From Raja brachyura (Eukaryota): 36,521 nucleotides of DNA. Position numbers and translations under genes: made by a program. Positions 11,518-32,412 of the stretch are shown piece after piece. Positions within the stretch are counted from its first letter, which is position 1, and every line of letters begins with the position of its first letter. A model generated the notes under the pieces. The model was not told the DNA's origin. It searched no databases and saw only the letters and a list, made by a program, of their open reading frames with translations. The DNA lies in contig CAUPSL010001515.1 of the NCBI GenBank assembly GCA_963514005.1, positions 1-36,521 on the forward strand, read 5' to 3'.

Positions 11518-11538
11518 AGACTTGTGGATTGAGTAAAG
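11518..11538 (+). CDS. TRBC: TRBC exon 2, connecting peptide with interchain Cys (ETCGLSK)
   Basis: Acceptor tttgttcttacag at 11517; donor AAG|gtgagt at 11539; 21 nt, phase 1/1, in frame with exons 1 and 3. A short Cys-bearing exon is typical of TRBC. Confidence 0.88.
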
Positions 11539-11554: not shown

Positions 11555-12681
11555 AACATAGAAACATAGTAAATAGGTGCAGGAGTAGGCCATTCGGCCC
11601 TTCGAGCCTGCACCGCCATTCAATGTGATCATGGCTGATCATCCAACTCAGTATCCCGTACCTGCCTTCTCTCCATACCCCCTGATCCCTTTAGCCACAT
11701 GTGCCACATCTAACGCCCTCTTAAATATAGCCAATGAACTGGCCTCAACTACCTTCTGTGGCAGAGAATTCCAGAGACTCACCACTCTCCGTGTAAAGAA
11801 TGTTTTCCTCATTTCGGTCCTAAAGGAATTCCCCCTTATCCTTAGACTGTGACCCCTTGTTCTGGACTCCCCCAACATCGGGAACAATCTTCCAACATCT
11901 AGCTTGTCCAACCCCTTAAGAATTTTGTAAGTTTCTATAAGATCCCCCCTCAATCTTCTAAATTCCAGCGAGTACAAGCCGAGTCTATCCAATCTTTCCT
12001 CATATGAAAGTCCTGACATCCCAGGAATCAGTCTGGTGAATCTTCTCTGTACCCCCTCTATGGCAAGGATGTCTTTCCTCAGATTTGGAGACCAAAACTG
12101 TATGCAATACTCCAGGTGTGGCCTCACCAAAACCCTGTACAACTGCAGTAGAACCTCCCTGCTCCTATACTCAAATCATTTCGCTATGAATGCTAACATA
12201 CCATTTGCTTTCTTCACTGCCTGCTGCACCTGCATGCCTACTTTCAATGACTGGTGTACCATGACACCCAGGTCTCGTCGCATCTCCCCCTTTCCTAATC
12301 TGCCACCATTCAGATAATAGTCTACCCTCATATTTTTGCCACCAAAGTGGATAACCTCACATTTATCCACATTATACTGCATCTGCCATGCATCTGCCCA
12401 TTCACTCAGCCTATCCAAATCACCCTGCAGCCTCCAAGCATCCTCCTCACACCTAACTATACCCCCCAGCTTGGTATCATCTTCAAATTTGGAGATGTTG
12501 CATTGAATTCCCTCGTCCAAATCATTAATATATATTGTAAATAGCTGGGGTCCCAGCACTGAGCCTTGCGGCACCCCACTAGTCACTGCCTGCCATTCTG
12601 AAAAGGACCCGTTTACTCCTACCCTTTGCCTCCAGTCTGCTAGCCAGTTCTCTATCCACATCAATACTGAATCCCCAATAC
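11555..12681 (-). mobile_element. 5'-truncated CR1 LINE (RT C-terminal part and 3' UTR), same family as 16332-17381
   Basis: ORFs 12176-12664 and 11648-12142 are one frame broken by a single TGA at 12176-12178; catagaaa tail at about 11555. Confidence 0.92.
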
Positions 12682-12749
12682 ACTTTAAATATGTATACCG
12701 TCATTATTTTAAGACTGTTTACCCTTTCTGTGAGTTAAAACTTAATAGC

Positions 12750-14130
12750 CTCACAGAGCCATACATAGAGTGCAAAAATACACTTCAGCCAAACCTGCCC
12801 TCGCCAACCAACATGCCACACCTACTTTATTACCATCTTTCCGTTCTTGGCCCACGTCCCCCTAAAGCTTTCCTATCCAGTTAACTTTCCAAACATTTCT
12901 TAAACGTTGTGATGGTGCTTGCCAGAACTACCCCCCCCCCCCCCCCCCCCCCCCGGGAACATGTTTCATACAGCCACTGTGTAGAAAAATTGACTCTCAG
13001 GTTCCTATTAAACGCTTCTCCTGCTCATCCCCCTCACCGTACACATATCACCACTGGTTCTCGATGCTCCATAATCTGGGAAAAAGACTGTGCATCTACT
13101 TGCTCTATTCATCGCATGATTTTGAACAGCTCTATAAGATAACCCTCATCCTCCTACTTTCCAAGGATTAAAGTCCTAGCCTGACTCAAGCTTTCCCTGC
13201 AGCTCAGGCCCTCGAGTCATGGCAACATTTATGTAAATATTCATGGCATCCTTTCCGGCTTAACAACATCTTTCCATAAACAGGGTGACCACAACTGAAC
13301 ATCAATACTCAAAATGTAGCCTTACCGATGTCTAGTACAGCTACTATATTACCTATGTCCTCTGGGTCTTGATTCCCCTATCGTGGGGGTAAAAGACTGT
13401 ACATTTACCCGATCTATTCCCCTCATGATTTTATACAATATCAGATCACATCATCCTCCTGCGCTCCTAAGAATACATTTTTAGCCTGCTGAAACTCTCC
13501 CTAAAGCTCAGACCCCGAGTCCTGGCAACATTCTCGTAAATCTTCTCTGCACAATTTCCCGGACATCAACATATTCCCTATAACATGGTATATGTAGTCC
13601 AAATGTGGCCTCACCAAAGTCTCCCTGTAACAGTCGTTCCACATTTCTACACTCAATTCTCTGACAAATAAAGGTAATGTGCAAAGTCAGCCTCCGAGGA
13701 CGGCTACGGGAATGCGTCTGCCGACTCCAGCCGGGCCGGAGATACAGAGTCCCGGCCGCAGGGGGCAAATCTGACCAGTCAATCCGCCGCGGAAGTCCCG
13801 GTGAGGTCGAGATTAGCACCCATACTCGGCCTCAGCGTCGCATTTTCGAGACGGATTTCTGGGAGGGATTTCAAGTATGCTCTCGTAACATGTTAGAGCT
13901 AAAGGAAGTGCCAGACCACCAGTTGCTGGAAAATCAGTGGCGGCAATGTATATTTGTGTTCCCTCTTTCAGAGAATTATGGACTTGGACCACAAGATCCC
14001 TCTGTACATCGATGCCGTTGAGGTTCTTGGCATTAACTATATAATTCCCCCTTGCATACGACCTCCCAAAGTGCAACATCTCGCACGTGCTCAGATTACA
14101 CTCCAACCACCATTTTTCTACCCATTTATG
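12750..14130 (-). mobile_element. Tandem degenerate CR1 fragments in intron 2, with a GC-rich insert at about 13693-13945
   Basis: VQRRFTRMLPG and QRDLVVQVHNSLK motifs in ORFs 13508-13819 and 13813-14106. Confidence 0.65.
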
Positions 14131-14320
14131 TAGCTAATCTTTCTCCCACTGAATACTTTGACATATTTCCTCACGGTCCGCAACCCCAGCGTTTGTTCAT
14201 TCATAATCATCTGTTATGTGAAAGTGCCTATACTACTTCAGCAAGTAAGAATTGATCGTGTAATAAACTTAATTCTTAACTCCAGATGTTCTTTACCACA
14301 TCTTTATATTCCTTTAACAG

Positions 14321-14427
14321 AAGCTAAAGTTCAGACAATGCAAACTGCGAAACTGACTTACCTGATCCTGATTTGCAAGAGTATTCTCTATGGAATAATT
14401 GTTTCTGTATTAGCTTGCAAAGCCAAG
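14321..14427 (+). CDS. TRBC: TRBC exon 3, transmembrane (EAKVQTMQTAKLTYLILICKSILYGIIVSVLACKAK)
   Basis: Acceptor cctttaacag at 14320; donor AAG|gtaagt at 14428. Contains the conserved TCR-beta TM pattern Y.IL..KS.LY with the intramembrane Lys that contacts CD3. Confidence 0.93.
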
Positions 14428-15335: not shown

Positions 15336-16331
15336 AAACTATCTTATCCATATACCTGTCAAAAAAACATTGTGATAGTAAATGCTTTAACTACCTCCTC
15401 CAGCAGCTCTGTCCATATACGCACCTCCGTCTGTGTGAAAAATGTGCCCCCCATGTTCATTAATCCTTTCCCCCACCCCCCCTCACTTTAAAGTATTTCC
15501 TTTGGCTCTCGATTCCTCAGCCATGGATAAAAGGCTCTGCGCTTTCAACCTATCTATTCTCCTCTTTTTTTCTAAAACTCCATACGATCACACCTCATCC
15601 TCCTCAGCTCCAAGGAAGACAGTCCTAGCCTGCATTTGAGTCTTGGCAATGTCCTTGTAAATCGTCCCTGTACTCATTTCAATATTAAACACAGGGACAC
15701 AAATTGCTGCAGTAACTGAGCAGGTCAGGCAGCATCTCTAGAGAACATGTATAGGGGTGAGATCGGTCTAGACCCAAAGCATCACGTATCGATAATCTAC
15801 AGAAACAGATACATGGACAGAACATGTTAAGAGGGATATTCTGTTTTGCTGTCGCGTGTACCGAGGATAAAGTGAATAACGTTTAGTGCAAACAAAGAAA
15901 CATAAAACATAGAAACATAGGTGCAGGAGTAGGCCATTCGGCCCTTCGCGCCTGCACCGCCATTCTATATGATCATGGCTGATCATCCAACTCAGTATCC
16001 TGTACCTGACTTATCGCCATACCCCCTGATCCCTTTAGCCACAAGGGCAACATCTAACTCACTCGTAAATATAGCCAATGAACTGGCCTCAACTATCTTC
16101 TGTGGCAGTGAATTCCACAGATTCACCACTCTCTGTTTGAAAAATGTGTTTTCTCATCTCGGTCCTGGAGGACTTCCCCCTTCCCTTAAAATGTGACCCC
16201 TTGTTCTGGACTTCCCGAACATCGGGAACAATCCTCCTGCATCTAGCCTGTCCCACCCCTTAAGAATTGTATACGTTTCTATAAGATCCCCCCTCAATCT
16301 TCTAAATTCTAGCGACTACAACCCAAGTCTA

Positions 16332-17381
16332 GTAGTGCAGTGACTAGTGGGGTACCGCAAGACTCAGTGCTGGGACCCCAGCTATTTACAATATACATAA
16401 ATGATCTGGATGAGGGAATTGAAGGCAATATCTCCAAGTTTGCGGATGACACTAAGCTGGGGGGCAGTGTTAGCTGTGAGGAGGATGCTAGGAGAATGCA
16501 AGGTGACTTGGATAGGTTGGGTGAGTGGGCAAATGTTTGGCAGATGCAGTATAATGTGGATAAATGTGAGGTTATCCACTTTGGTGGCAAAAATAGGAAA
16601 ACCGACTACTATCTAAATGGTGGCCGATTAGGAAAAGGGGAGATGCAGCGCGACCTGGGCGTCATGGTACACCAGTCATTGAAAGTAGGCATGCAGGTAC
16701 AGCAGGCAGTGACGAAAGCCAATGGTATGTTAGCTTTCATAGCAAAAGGATTTGAGTATAGGAGCAGGGAGGTTCTACTTCAGTTGTATAGGGTCTTGGT
16801 GAGGCCACACCTGGAGTATTGCGCACAGTTCTGGTCTCCAAATCTGAGGAAGGATATTATTGCCATAGAGGGAGTGCAGCGAAGGTTCACCAGACTGATT
16901 CCTGGGATGTCAGGACTGTCTTATGAACAAAGTCTGCATAGACTCGGTTTATACTCTCTAGAATTTAGGAGATTGAGAGGGGATCTTATAGAAACTTACA
17001 AGATTCTTAAGGGATTGGACAGGCTAGATGCAGGAAGATTGTTCCCGATGTTAGGGAGGTCCAGGACAAGGGGTCACAGCTTAAGGATAAGTGGGGAATC
17101 TTATAGGACCGAGATGAGAAGGAATTTTTTCACACAGAGAGTGGTGGGTCTCTGGAACTCTCTGCCACAGAGGGTAGTTGAGGCCAGTTCATTGGCTATA
17201 TTTAAGAGGGAGTTAGATGTGGCCCTTGTGGCTAAGGGGATCAGAGGGTATGGAGAGAAGGCAGGTACGGGATACTGAGTTGGATGATCAGCCATGATCA
17301 TATTGAATGGCGGTGCAGGCTCGAAGGGCCGAATGGCCTACTCCTGCACCTAATTTCTATGTTTCTATCTATGTTTCTATG
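16332..17381 (+). mobile_element. Young 5'-truncated CR1 LINE copy nested in opposite orientation
   Basis: Uninterrupted 312-aa ORF 16340-17278 (GVPQDSVLGP, YINDL, FADDTK, RPHLEYC); (ttctatgt)n tail; flanked by AGTCTA at 16326-16331 and 17382-17387. Confidence 0.92.
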
Positions 17382-21867: not shown

Positions 21868-21894
21868 ACATCTTACAACAAAAGGTTTGATTAA
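21868..21894 (+). CDS. TRBC: TRBC exon 4, cytoplasmic tail TSYNKRFD*
   Basis: Acceptor atcttgtttcag at 21867; phase 0 matches the end of exon 3; lies in a non-repeat island; stop TAA 21892-21894. Resembles chondrichthyan TCR-beta C-termini as I recall them (not checked). Confidence 0.8.
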   Translation, partial: TSYNKRFD

Positions 21895-22659: not shown

Positions 22660-22800
22660 GCAGTGATAGAGCCACTGCATCACAGCAGCAGAGACCCAAG
22701 GTAGATCCTGAACCTCGGTTGCTGTCGTTCAGGAGTTTGCATATTCTCCCTGTGACAACGTTGGATTCCACCGAGTGCTCCGATTTTCTCCCACGTCCCG
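22660..22800 (+). mobile_element. Truncated V-type SINE
   Basis: Degenerate match to the same SINE head and core. Confidence 0.6.
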
Positions 22801-22850
22801 ATTTTCTGATCTTTGATTTTATATGAATGTTTCTTGATTTCATTAATGTA

Positions 22851-23400
22851 CTAGACCAAGTGCAGACTCGTTGGGTCTGCTCTCCCAACGCACCCGTTCC
22901 CCACCCGTAGCACCCACGGGAGGCGTGGTTCTCCTACTCAACCATTTCCCGAACATAAGATTCCAGCACTCCTCTTCCTCCCCAGCCCCACAGGACTTGA
23001 AATAAAAAATCCCAATTGCACTTGCCCAATTGCAATACAAATTCACCCTCCCCCCCCCCCCCCCCGCCCCCCCCCCCCCCGCCCTGCTGGGAGCTATGAA
23101 GGCAACGATGTTGCAAATGTCGGGTGCACTTGTGATATGCCATTGACTTGAAAAGTTCAGAGTGTTCCTGATTGCAACTTTAAAATGGAAGTGTGTTGGA
23201 AGCTGTGAGAAATGATTTTAACAGTAAAATTGTTTTCAATGTTTACGTTTTTAAACTTTATTCGTAATAATTCGATAAATAAAGCACGAAATGTTAACAT
23301 AAGGTGATTGCGGCCTCGACGGGAAAAATGGCAGCCGGAATATGTAAAAAATATTTATCGTTTCCGCGTTGTTGTTTTTCGAAGATGTAAAGAGATTGAT
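22851..23400 (-). mobile_element. Non-autonomous Helitron-like element
   Basis: The minus strand ends GCAGACCC-AAC-GAGTCTGC (hairpin, 22862-22880) + ACTTGGTCTAG|T, the canonical Helitron 3' hairpin and CTAG. The 5' end is not defined. Confidence 0.6.
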
Positions 23401-23409
23401 GTAAACAAA

Positions 23410-24650
23410 TTTGATTGATTATTTTGAAGTCAGCAAAAAGGTTGGTGAGGGCAGAGATGTAGATGTTGTGTACATGGACTTTATTAGCTCATTCGACAAG
23501 GTGCCGCATGGTAGACTAATCTGAAAGGTTCGATCTCATGCGATCTAAGGTGAGATAGCATAGTGGATAGCAAATTGGTTTCATTTAAGGAAGCAGAGGG
23601 TCTTGGTTGAACGTTGCTTCCCAGAATGGAAGCTCGTGACTTGTGGTGTTCCACAGGGTTCGATTCTGCCCCCTTCCTATTTGTCATCTACATCAATGAT
23701 TTGGATGGGAACAACAGGGCAACCTCAGCTAGTTTGGTGATGATACTAAAGTTAGTGGTTTTGCAGTTAGTGAAGAAAGTTGTGAATGATTGAAGCATGA
23801 TCTGGATCGATTGCCCACGTCGACGTAGGAATGGTTGATATAATTTAATACAGAGAAGTGTGAGGTGTTGCATTTTGGGGCGTCGAACACGGGCAGGACC
23901 TACACAGTAAATAGTAGGCCTCTGAGTAGTGTTGTAAAGCAGAGGGGTCTGGGTATAAAAGCGCATGGTTCGTTGAAGGGTGACTCGTAGGTAGAGAAGG
24001 TGGTCAAAATGACTTTTGGCACTTTGGGCTTCATCAGCCAGAGTATTGAGTATAGAAGCTCGGAGGTCATGTTTCAGTTGTACAAAAATGGTAAGACCGC
24101 ATTTAGAATATTGTGTGAAGTTCTGTGCACCATGTTACAACATATATAACGTCAAGCTTGAAAGGTTTCAGCAAATATGTACGAGGACGTTGCCAGGACT
24201 AGAGGGTGTGAACTGTAGAGGGTGCTTAGTTAGGCTGGCTCTCTATTCCATGGAGCGCAGGAGGAATAGGGGAAATCTTACAGAGGTATATAAAGTCATG
24301 AGAGTAATCGATCGGGTAGATGTACAGAGTCATTTACACAGAGTAGGGGAGTCGAAGACCAGAGGACATAGATTCAAGGTCAAGGGGAAAGGATTTAACA
24401 GGAATTCGAATGGTAATTTTTTCGCACAGAGGATGGTGGGTGTATAGAACAAGCCACAAGAGGAGGTTGTTGAAGCTGGGACTATCCCATCGTTCACGAA
24501 ACAATTGGACAGGTACATGGATAGGACAGGTATGGAGGGTTATGGACCAAGGGCAGGCAAGTGGGACTAGGGTAGCTGGGACATTGTTGGCCGGTGTGTG
24601 CGAGTTTGGTCGAACGGGCCTGTTTCCGCACTGTATTACTCTATGAGTCT
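23410..24650 (+). mobile_element. Degenerate CR1 RT/3' portion
   Basis: VRPHLEYC...ESKTRGHRFKVKG in ORF 24016-24447; (ctatgact)-like tail at about 24640. Confidence 0.8.
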
Positions 24651-24654
24651 ACAA

Positions 24655-25060
24655 TATTTCCAATTTCATAATTTATCCTTTCATGGCTCCGTTATTTTAA
24701 TGTTTTTGTGGCTTTATCATTTCATGTTTCCATGATATATCTGATATCAGAATTAATCAACTTAGCGATATCTTTGCTTTCAAGATTGTATAACTTTATT
24801 GTTCCTTGATATCCCATATTTCAAGATTGCATAATTGTATGACACCATGTTTCCAATTTCAACATTATATGACCATGATTGCGATGATTTTGTGACATTA
24901 TGACTGTGATTCCATGATATTCATGATTTCCAGAATTGAATAATTTAGTAGTTCTAAAATACAACTAATTTCAGTTTTGTATAACTTTATAATTCCATGA
25001 TATCTCTGATTTCAGGCCTGTATAACCACGATCCTGTGATTTCAAGATTATACGAACCTA
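24655..25060. repeat. AT-rich imperfect minisatellite
   Basis: Recurrent tttcaagattgtataa and ttccatgatat motifs with roughly 40-bp spacing. Confidence 0.55.
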
Positions 25061-25288
25061 CCTTTCCTTGGATTTGAAATCAGTTTTGAATATTAATTCG
25101 CTTTGCTGCGTTAGTTCGGTGCGCTTGCTCATGACCTGTTACCTGTTTCACTCGGAAATCAATTTTCTTGTGATCCGGGGAGTTAGGTTTCCGACGATGG
25201 ACATCAAACTAAAATCTTTGCAGAGACCTCTGTATTCACCATTGATCTAGCAATCTGCATTTTTTATGTACATGGTCATATCTTAAGC

Positions 25289-25315
25289 AATAAAGAGAGC
25301 GTTACTGCAAATAAA
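25289..25315 (+). terminator. Tandem AATAAA polyadenylation signals, possible TRBC 3' end
   Basis: AATAAA at 25289-25294 and 25310-25315 in a non-repeat island downstream of exon 4, followed by T-rich sequence. No transcript evidence. Confidence 0.35.
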
Positions 25316-26184
25316 TCTCTCGTTTCTCATTTACTTATGTCATAGTTGCATAAAACGGAAATAGTCAGAATTCAAGGGGCCTGAGCTACAGAAACTTCAT
25401 AAATTATATGAGCAGTATTAGTCAAGTCTTGAATCATGGCTGATCTACATTTCCCTCGCAGCTGCATTGTCACGCCTTTACCCCATAACACCTGAAGCCT
25501 GTACTAATAAATATTTTTTGCAAACGCATACCTTTATCCATTGACCTGGCGTCGACAGCTGTCTGTGGCTAAGAATTCCACAGATTCACCACCATCTGGC
25601 TAAAGAATTTCCTCCACATCTACATTCTAAAGGAATACTATTTTATTCTGAGTCTGTAGCGTCTGGTCCTAGACTCTCCCACGAATCATAAAAACATATC
25701 CACATCCACTCTATCCAGAACATACTATTTGGTACGTTTCTATGTGGCCCCGCACTCATCCTTCTAAACTGCAACCGGTACAGGCCCAGTATCATCAAAT
25801 GCTAATGAATTAATCCAATCATCCTTGGATCATTCTTGTAAACCTCTGCTGGACACTCTCCAATCTGCGTGAAGGAGAGGTTCAGCAGGTTAGGCATGTA
25901 TACCTTGGAACACTGTAGATGTTGTACATATGGTTTCCAGCAACGCATTTGACAAGGTTCCGCATGGTAGGCTGCCCTGGATGGTTAGATGGCATGGGAT
26001 CCAGTGAGAGAGAGCTGAATGGATAGAAAAATTGAGTTCACAGAAGGAAGCAGAAGGTGATGTTGAAATGTAGTTTTTCGGACAGCAGGCCTGTGACTAG
26101 TGGCGTGCTCAGTGTTCGTTGCTGGGTCAATTGCTGTTTGTCATCATATCAATGATTTGGATGAGAACATACAAAGCATGATTA

Positions 26185-30589: not shown

Positions 30590-31134
30590 TGACCTGTGAC
30601 ACCATTTTCAGGGAATTATGCACCTGCACTGTTAGATCCCACTGCTCCACACCACTCCCTGTCTACATGAGACGCCACTTTCAGGGAACTATGTACCTGC
30701 ATTCCTATATCTCTCCGCGCTACAACAATCCCTGTCTTCCTGTGACGCCAACTTCAGAAACAATATACCTGCACTCCTAGATCACTCAGCTCTAAAGCAC
30801 TTACCATCTACCTTTGACGGTACTTTCAATGAACTACTGTATGGACCTGCAGTTCTAGATCCCTCTGCTCCGCAACACTCCATGATTACGTGTGACTCCG
30901 CATTCTGGGAACTATGCACTGCACCTCTAGATACCTCTGCTCGAGAACACTCCATCTACACCGAGTACACCACTTTCAGGGAACTATGCACCTGCACCCC
31001 AATATCGCTCTGCACTGCAATACCTCCCGTCTACATGTGACGCCCATTTCAGTGAACTATTTACATTCACTCCAAGATCCCACTGCACTTCAACACTCCC
31101 TGCCTAAATGTGATACTACGTTCAGGGAACTATG
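30590..31134. repeat. About 7.5 diverged tandem copies of a ~73-bp unit derived from CR1 RT sequence
   Basis: The anchor tcagggaactatg and variants recur at about 30609, 30682, 30755, 30827, 30905, 30977, 31050 and 31123. Confidence 0.85.
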
Positions 31135-31139
31135 GAGGG

Positions 31140-31490
31140 TGGGGGTGGAGAGGAAAGTGGAAATAAATACACTTGTTTGTTTCTGAGTTGCACAGTTTGG
31201 CTTCCGTTGGCTTGCGGAAATACTGAGTCAAACGGAAAAAAAAGCCGTCAGAGATCGAACAAAGCAGGCGAGTCGAGAACAACAAGTAGCAGGTGCCTGG
31301 GAGGAGGCGGCAGTTCTTGCGGATGTGGTGTAAACACCAATTGTCTGTTCCACTACAACGTTGCCTGCGTAAAGTAGGTCACACCATCTCCGCCCGGTTT
31401 GTGGTCGAACTAGTTCTCGACATTTGAGTTTTAGTGTGTCATAGGGGGAAGGGATGTGGCTTGGTGCTCTGCTGAGTAGGCACCTGTTTC
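31140..31490. promoter_or_regulatory. Candidate TCR-beta 3' enhancer
   Basis: Non-repeat island about 9.3 kb 3' of the last coding exon. Motifs: CGGATGTGGT (31320-31329), GGATGTGGC (31452-31460), TGTGGT (31400-31405), E-boxes CAGGTG (31290) and CACCTG (31481), AP-1 TGAGTCA (31224-31230) and further GGAA cores. Confidence 0.5.
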
Positions 31491-32412
31491 TTTGTCGTTC
31501 TCTCACTCTCTCCCTCCCCTATCCCCCTCTCTCTCTCGCTCTATCTCTCTNNNNNNNNNNNNNNNNNNNNNNNNNNNNNNNNNNNNNNNNNNNNNNNNNN
31601 NNNNNNNNNNNNNNNNNNNNNNNNNNNNNNNNNNNNNNNNNNNNNNNNNNNNNNNNNNNNNNNNNNNNNNNNNNNNNNNNNNNNNNNNNNNNNNNNNNNN
31701 NNNNNNNNNNNNNNNNNNNNNNNNNNNNNNNNNNNNNNNNNNNNNNNNNNNNNNNNNNNNNNNNNNNNNNNNNNNNNNNNNNNNNNNNNNNNNNNNNNNN
31801 NNNNNNNNNNNNNNNNNNNNNNNNNNNNNNNNNNNNNNNNNNNNNNNNNNNNNGTTTCTTTATTTCTCCAGTTTCTCCTTTCTCTCTCCTCTCTCTCTCC
31901 TCTCCCCGCCACGTCGCTCCATCTTTCTCCCATGTGTCTCTCCTCTATCTCTTTCTCTCTCTCCCCCTTTCCCTCTGATGCAGTTGTACAATGGGGAGAG
32001 GAGAGAGGAGCAGATGGAGAGGGAGGAGATAGGGAGAGAGTGATAGAGTGGGGAGAGAAGAGACACGGAGAAGCGGGAGAGGGACGTATGGGCGAAAGAG
32101 AGGGATGGAGAGAGCGACAAACGAGAGAGATAAAGAAGAGAGACATGAGTGTGAGAGAAAGATAAAGAGAGAGGGAGGGGAGGAGACTGGACTGGACGGA
32201 GTGGGAAGTGGAGAGAGAGATGTAGAGAGAGGAGAGAGAAAAGAGGGAGAGAGATGGGAGAGAGATAGTAGAGAAAGAAATGGGATCAGGATTAGAGAAA
32301 GAGCGGACTGGAGAGAGAGATGGGAGAAAGATAGAAACATGGGAGGAGAGAAATAGGAAATAGAGAGGGGGAGAGATGTGGAGCAAGAGAGAGGTGGAGA
32401 AAGAGAGAGAGT
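31490..32412. repeat. CT then GA low-complexity tracts spanning a gap
   Basis: Base composition. Confidence 0.85.
31551..31853. other. Assembly gap (N)
   Basis: Run of N. Confidence 1.

Follow-up and report, generated by a model that had tools for sequence, protein, structure and literature searches.

A candidate T-lineage enhancer 3' of the TCR-beta constant gene in a skate

Does the TCR-beta locus of a cartilaginous fish carry an enhancer comparable to the E-beta element of mammals? The question is raised by a stretch of 36.5 kb of skate DNA, referred to below as the window, in which a short island stands among repeats downstream of a constant gene. The mouse E-beta is located between C-beta2 and V-beta31 (PMC13639285), and a putative bovine E-beta is reported ~8.7 kb 3' of TRBC3 (PMC2685407). 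A sequence-only reading had likened the position of the skate island to that of mammalian E-beta, and this likeness holds, the island being 9.2 kb past the stop codon and the putative bovine element ~8.7 kb past TRBC3.

One gene is present in the window, on the plus strand and in four exons. Judged by its protein matches, it is a batoid TCR-beta constant gene (TRBC), with exons as follows:

9067-9417, plus strand: TRBC exon 1, a C1-set Ig domain (Pfam C1-set, E=1.6e-17; AG/GT ends)
11518-11538, plus strand: TRBC exon 2, connecting peptide with the interchain Cys (by-eye reading; match to the hinge of P0001)
14321-14427, plus strand: TRBC exon 3, transmembrane (tblastn, 92% against P0001 residues 239-276)
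21868-21894, plus strand: TRBC exon 4, coding part up to the stop (by eye; C-terminus of P0001, P0002 and P0007 matched)

Exon 1 shares 82% identity with P0001 and 73% with a gene model of Leucoraja erinacea; against shark chains, several of which are named TCR beta, the identity is 50-58%. A second batoid TRBC paralogue was sought in the protein collection, where only P0001 and P0002 were found. The constant gene spans 12.8 kb, swollen by LINE pieces; 3' pieces of LINE reverse transcriptase occur in its introns on opposite strands (16313-17278, RVT_1 E=4e-9, and 11648-12700). Intron 1 also includes, 5' of the hinge exon, a degenerate copy of the transmembrane exon (9704-9817), 79% identical to 14300-14421 and 71% to P0001 across 28 residues. 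Its acceptor is intact, but it lacks a donor, bears a deletion and is interrupted by an in-frame stop: a relic of a local exon duplication. Candidate poly(A) regions for TRBC are marked by AATAAA words at 23278 and 25289/25310. Upstream, a J segment is absent within the 9 kb 5' of TRBC exon 1 (1-9066), a stretch with two N gaps, and the window as a whole gave no credible V match, D-beta core near the island, J (FGxGT) codon pattern or good RSS. In the horn shark, five TRBC-bearing gene models (P0009-P0013), 0-3 residues apart, are placed on four contigs; they make several TRB clusters plausible in a cartilaginous fish, but could also be haplotypes. Several of these models also match LINE-derived stretches of the window, which points to mis-predicted exons.

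The island starts 9246 bp 3' of the TRBC stop codon. Its extent, its 5' flank and its GC box are:

31135-31510, unstranded: low-copy non-coding island, candidate enhancer (no self-match in the window; at most two records per run)
30595-31134, unstranded: 73-bp tandem array of a dispersed repeat, the 5' flank of the island (TRF, 7.4 copies; many records per run)
31388-31395, minus strand: GC box (Sp/KLF), the only one of the window outside a C-run

The region 31135-31550 has no self-match within the window, 57% of which has one. Other stretches lacking a self-match, with a CpG o/e of at least 0.87 where measured, are found at 1164-1720, 13590-13950, 22799-23435 and 25026-25421. On its 3' side, the island is followed by a CT tract and then by a 303-N gap, which begins 41 bp past the island; the window ends 5 kb 3' of the island, and no inverted V-beta was seen in these 5 kb. 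The CpG o/e of the core is 1.03 versus a window median of 0.52.

A coding exon at the island is ruled out by 1-bp frameshifting indels in relatives and by the absence of any Pfam family for its 87-codon frame. At ~31172-31196, a polypyrimidine tract followed by CAG looks like a splice acceptor, and there may be a non-coding exon. Known RNAs were discarded as well: the 19 weak Rfam matches all fall on a CT/GA tract at 31926-32053, with none in the island, and the tRNA search gave none at the island. The plus strand of the island folds slightly better than its shuffles (z=-2.1), and the minus strand folds like them. The search for a CTCF site 3' of the island returned only uninformative matches, with 2 mismatches to the consensus, and a 22-base core pattern had no match in a metagenome scan.

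A motif scan of the window recovered all eight motifs previously read in the island, each at its coordinates; they are given below with an extra Ets core that the earlier list did not include and with the two arms of an inverted repeat:

31320-31329, plus strand: Ets-Runx composite 1, CGGATGTGGT
31452-31460, plus strand: Ets-Runx composite 2, GGATGTGGC, with a weak Ets half (MGGAWR unmatched)
31400-31406, plus strand: stand-alone Runx site TGTGGT(C), a full match to TGYGGTY
31289-31295: E-box 1, CAGGTG at 31290 (GCAGGTG at 31289)
31481-31487: E-box 2, CACCTG at 31481
31224-31230, unstranded: AP-1 site TGAGTCA
31204: Myb-like CCGTTG
31330: forkhead-like GTAAACA
31200-31206, minus strand: extra Ets core (GGAA), overlapping the Myb-like site
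31275-31298, plus strand: left arm of an imperfect inverted repeat, containing E-box 1
31478-31502, minus strand: right arm of the inverted repeat, containing E-box 2

An Ikaros-like GGGAA is also present at the island, and no WGATAR word of the GATA type occurs in it.

Chance was assessed by dinucleotide shuffles, using consensus words picked once the finding was known. Two copies of GGATGTGG were reached in none of 20,000 island shuffles, and even one copy in 1% of them. A pair within 351 bp turned up once in 400 shuffles of the 14.3-kb region 3' of the gene and five times in 200 whole-window shuffles. Two GGATGTGG words within 351 bp are unusual. The extended form GGATGTGGY occurs twice in the window, together with three other GGATGTGG words without the final pyrimidine. 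Taken one by one, the remaining listed motifs are unremarkable, with p=0.065 for three Runx sites, p=0.068 for two E-boxes, p=0.068 for AP-1 and p=0.59 for Myb; the shuffles gave p=0.004 for five Ets-type sites and p=0.007 for three forkhead-type sites. With a fixed score combining composite, Runx, E-box and AP-1, the island ranks at the top of 1373 sliding windows with 8, the runner-up reaching 6, a rank that is partly circular because the motifs had been picked with the sequence already in view. The score of the 24-25-bp inverted repeat was attained by 2 of 1000 shuffles; as both E-boxes are mirror copies in this one repeat, they are not independent observations.

Related organisms were used to determine the copy status of the island. 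For 31135-31500, 22 runs are listed, none of which is an RNA run, and four of them, from four studies and four organisms (C, D, E and G), were compared over 31060-31510 at 80% likeness, the runs being located by exact 31-mers. The comparison does not take in organisms F, H and I, with shares of 0.05-0.07, or A and B, with 0.45-0.63, and cover is absent at 31263-31327 in organism C and past 31359 in organism D. Copy types were judged by records, contig depth not being taken as copy number; the two records of organism G differ 4.5-fold in depth. In every run, two records at most account for the summed depth over the island, whereas many fall on the flanking repeat, so that the island is not a repeat family.

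Two copy types are found in relatives, a count drawn from the contigs of the four compared organisms. The type 1 copy is the orthologue, continuous with the flanking repeat. It shows 43 differences in 437 bases in organism E, 46 in 451 in G and none in 167 in C (depth 2), and is represented by two short records in D. The orthologue identity in E and G (89.8-90.2%) is no higher than that of records half made of flanking repeat (90.9-93.6%); it thus gives no sign of selection and could be neutral. As the compared organisms align at ~90% even over the flanking repeat, they are near relatives. The type 2 copy matches the following part of the island:

31170-31449, unstranded: part common to the paralogous copy (85-88% identity; alignment begins at 31170-31173 in all four runs)

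Its runs have a substitution set in common, with 128-594 unaligned bases beside the match. The common start, common substitutions and unaligned flanks indicate a paralogue older than the split of the compared organisms. The island had been called unique, which is correct as to its low copy number and the absence of a self-match in the window but leaves out the second, diverged copy of relatives. Likewise, the single-copy check that had been proposed separates the island from repeat families but yields an orthologue plus an older paralogue in relatives.

Site-by-site statements on conservation rest on the differences listed, 40 of the 81 rows of the difference table. Among these, none falls in composite 1, E-box 1, the AP-1 site (four covering runs), the Runx site at 31400 (C, E and G) or E-box 2, nor anywhere in 31464-31496 in E and G. 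Composite 2 is identical in organism C and carries three substitutions (31455, 31456 and 31458) in the E and G orthologues; it is thus broken in two of the three covering runs, and the paralogue alignments stop short of it. With these substitutions, the two-composite match to mouse betaE4/betaE6 does not look like a kept feature. The Myb-like and forkhead-like sites are present in the window as described but arose by changes on its own lineage: both copy types of relatives oppose the window (31207; 31333; 31330 in E), which makes these sites recent by-products. The eight motifs together show no depletion of changes, 7 of the 34 listed places falling in 57 of 327 bp (5.9 expected, p=0.78); five of the eight are untouched among the differences listed (p=0.27).

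The conservation is most pronounced in one block:

31278-31329, plus strand: most conserved block, 52 bp, with E-box 1, a G-rich Sp/KLF-like run and composite 1

Among the differences listed, one falls in this block (31313) versus 20 in the preceding 80 bp. For the organism G paralogue, 17 of 19 differences are listed, all of them 5' of 31278; for that of organism D, 22 of 28 are listed, one of them inside the block. The scan p is 0.007 (G) and 0.019 (D) if no unlisted change falls in the block, and becomes 0.25 for G, with a binomial value of 0.48 for D, in the worst case for unlisted changes, where the block loses significance. The paralogue comparisons have common ancestry, and because exact 31-mers served to find the runs, this selection itself ensures some invariant stretch. 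The E-box/Ets-Runx block, near-unchanged in the paralogue, is therefore the best sign of constraint but is suggestive only. Two changes look function-preserving: T>A at 31202 in the paralogue converts the Ets core GGAA to GGAT, and G>C at 31330 completes the Runx consensus of composite 1. At 31245-31251, three substitutions in the paralogue of C and D create a GATA-type site, at another position in the motif order, and E and G display a TGACAG (TALE-type) word. The lone TCF/LEF-like site (31258) is altered in relatives.

The enhancer reading is based on four observations, namely the location 3' of TRBC, the motif content, the low copy number and the retained core; the fact that the paralogue aligns just across the motif-rich part is also counted in its favour. 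From these, we consider it fairly, though not strongly, probable that the island serves the skate TCR-beta locus as a T-lineage enhancer and works like mammalian E-beta. Runx/CBF-beta would bind composite 1 (31320) cooperatively with an Ets1-type factor, and an E protein would occupy the E-box 30 bp 5' of it, with contributions from the second Runx site, the AP-1 site, the extra Ets cores and the Sp/KLF sites. The resulting complex would open chromatin and loop to D-beta/V-beta promoters upstream of the window, leading to germline transcription, recombination and expression at TRB. The working core would be constituted of E-box 1 and composite 1, possibly with AP-1 and the Runx site at 31400, and composite 2 and the 'Myb' and 'forkhead' sites would be lineage-specific extras or by-products. 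The element would have been duplicated before the four compared organisms split, most simply together with a TRB cluster. We infer each of these steps in the skate, from motif to binding to target.

Several reported features of mammalian enhancers make such a mechanism conceivable. Ets/Runx composites mark many T-cell enhancers and are typical of distal enhancers, not promoters; the TCR-beta and TCR-alpha enhancer sites are quoted as CAGGATGTGGT and GAGGATGTGGC, whose sequence and spacing recur in the skate composite, and loss of Ets1 reduces Runx and CBP binding at E-beta (PMC2787013). The composite spacing was reported as cooperative in vitro in 266 of 325 regions (PMC10681739). E-beta is abolished by mutating both Runx sites and impaired by mutating one (PMC5288706). 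Ets/Runx and E-box motifs are enriched generally at Ets1 sites of early thymocytes (PMC4856961). The elephant shark has an almost completely conserved Runt domain and a high level of Runx3 in thymus (PMC3974841). Since Ets/Runx composites mark many T-cell enhancers, TRB is named here as the target by proximity alone.

The skate element was compared with E-beta (mouse betaE1-betaE6, human T-beta2-4 and the putative bovine element) by position and motifs. Like E-beta, it stands several kb downstream of the final exon of a C-beta gene, includes a GGATGTGG-type composite and has three Runx motifs within a space of a few hundred bp, three putative Runx motifs being also reported in mouse E-beta (PMC5288706). 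In both, an E-box of the kappaE2 type and a bZIP site are found 5' of the first composite. The skate order AP-1, E-box, Ets/Runx and Runx recalls the order CRE (betaE2), kappaE2 box (betaE3) and Runx sites (betaE4, betaE6), as these are named in E-beta (PMC2685407, PMC5288706). The sizes are similar, the skate candidate extending over 330 bp, compared with a 560-bp core for mouse E-beta and a 187-bp minimal match for the bovine one. E-beta is described with two composites and E-alpha with one (PMC7696796); unlike E-beta, the skate element has one composite kept across relatives, two paralogous copies and E-boxes in an inverted repeat. The copy of the window also lacks the GATA site (betaE1), which is kept in mammalian E-beta (PMC2685407), and has AP-1 in place of the CRE.

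Other systems are resembled as well. The single stable composite, the E-boxes and the AP-1 site are reminiscent of E-alpha with its T-alpha2 Ets/Runx site, and composite 2 has GGATGTGGC in common with the E-alpha site quoted in PMC2787013, whereas the skate element is located at TRB and not TRA/D, and its TCF/LEF-like site is altered in relatives. The ETS1/RUNX T-cell composite class (motif 4, Hollenhorst 2009) displays the same composite, spacing and distal position but is genome-wide. It is doubtful that the bZIP, E-box and Ets/Runx core and mammalian E-beta are direct homologues, handed down from the ancestor of jawed vertebrates, and that the core was duplicated in skates with the TRB cluster. 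The deep conservation and orthology to mammalian E-beta suggested at the outset are open to the same degree of doubt.

The island could instead be neutral low-copy DNA, for example the relic of a small non-autonomous DNA transposon or part of an ancient segmental duplication, in which the motifs would be coincidental and the E-box simply doubled by the inverted repeat. A relic would explain the 228 bp enclosed between 24-25-bp inverted arms whose repeat is significant (2/1000 shuffles), the plus-strand fold slightly better than shuffles (z=-2.1) and the fact that each genome has two or more copies whose common 5' edge is sharp. However, each run has two record types at 80% likeness versus many on the neighbouring repeat, no target-site duplication was seen by eye, the common part begins 105 bp beyond the left arm, and the right arm is not reached by the paralogue alignments. 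Neutrality as such is in keeping with a motif set undepleted of changes, an orthologue identity that fits neutral drift and the non-retention of composite 2 and of the Myb and forkhead sites; against it, a single GGATGTGG appears in just 1% of island shuffles and the 52-bp block is near-invariant between paralogues. Neutral DNA is thus an unlikely explanation, though one to be taken seriously. An enhancer of haematopoietic or other type, which either originated independently in skates or serves a neighbour gene past the window, is a very unlikely one. Clusters of Ets/Runx, E-box and AP-1 sites are indeed a common grammar of thymocyte enhancers (PMC4856961, PMC2787013), short sites arise readily in evolution and the window stops 5 kb downstream, but TRBC is the sole gene in the window and the position fits E-beta.

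The island could also be a promoter, of the D-beta type for a further D-J-C cluster or for a V segment or a non-coding RNA, the rest of which would be in or past the 303-N gap. The GC box, several Ets cores, AP-1 site, Ikaros-like GGGAA and core CpG o/e of 1.03 point that way and recall mouse PD-beta1, which employs Sp1, AP-1, Ikaros and GATA (PMC2685407); the paralogue would suit tandem clusters, and the gap begins only 41 bp past the island. Yet the window offers no credible D-beta core near the island, J pattern, V match or good RSS, a CpG o/e of 0.86-0.94 is reached in other non-repeat stretches too, and Ets/Runx composites typify distal enhancers (PMC2787013), which together render a promoter quite improbable.

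The skate island, read as a T-lineage enhancer, is a candidate addition to the E-beta-like enhancers. In the literature searched, E-beta is described only in placental mammals and no TCR-beta enhancer of a cartilaginous fish was found, older subscription work on shark and skate TCR-beta being outside that search; for the fish, shark and skate TCR-beta enhancer papers that it covered, figures and supplements may hold more. The word 'enhancer' occurs zero times in the available text of the opossum, axolotl, squamate and catfish TRB papers (PMC12529555, PMC2275272, PMC11754216, PMC8656973). A specialist would anticipate some such enhancer, so that the surprise is moderate and the value lies in a question made testable. 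If the homology is true, the Runx/Ets switch for TCR-beta recombination would date to the origin of alpha-beta T cells. If the element was duplicated with TRB clusters, each cluster would have its own enhancer, and exclusion between clusters would become testable via two natural variants. With a 330-bp candidate, a 52-bp core and a natural paralogue, the age of the Runx/Ets logic itself becomes testable.
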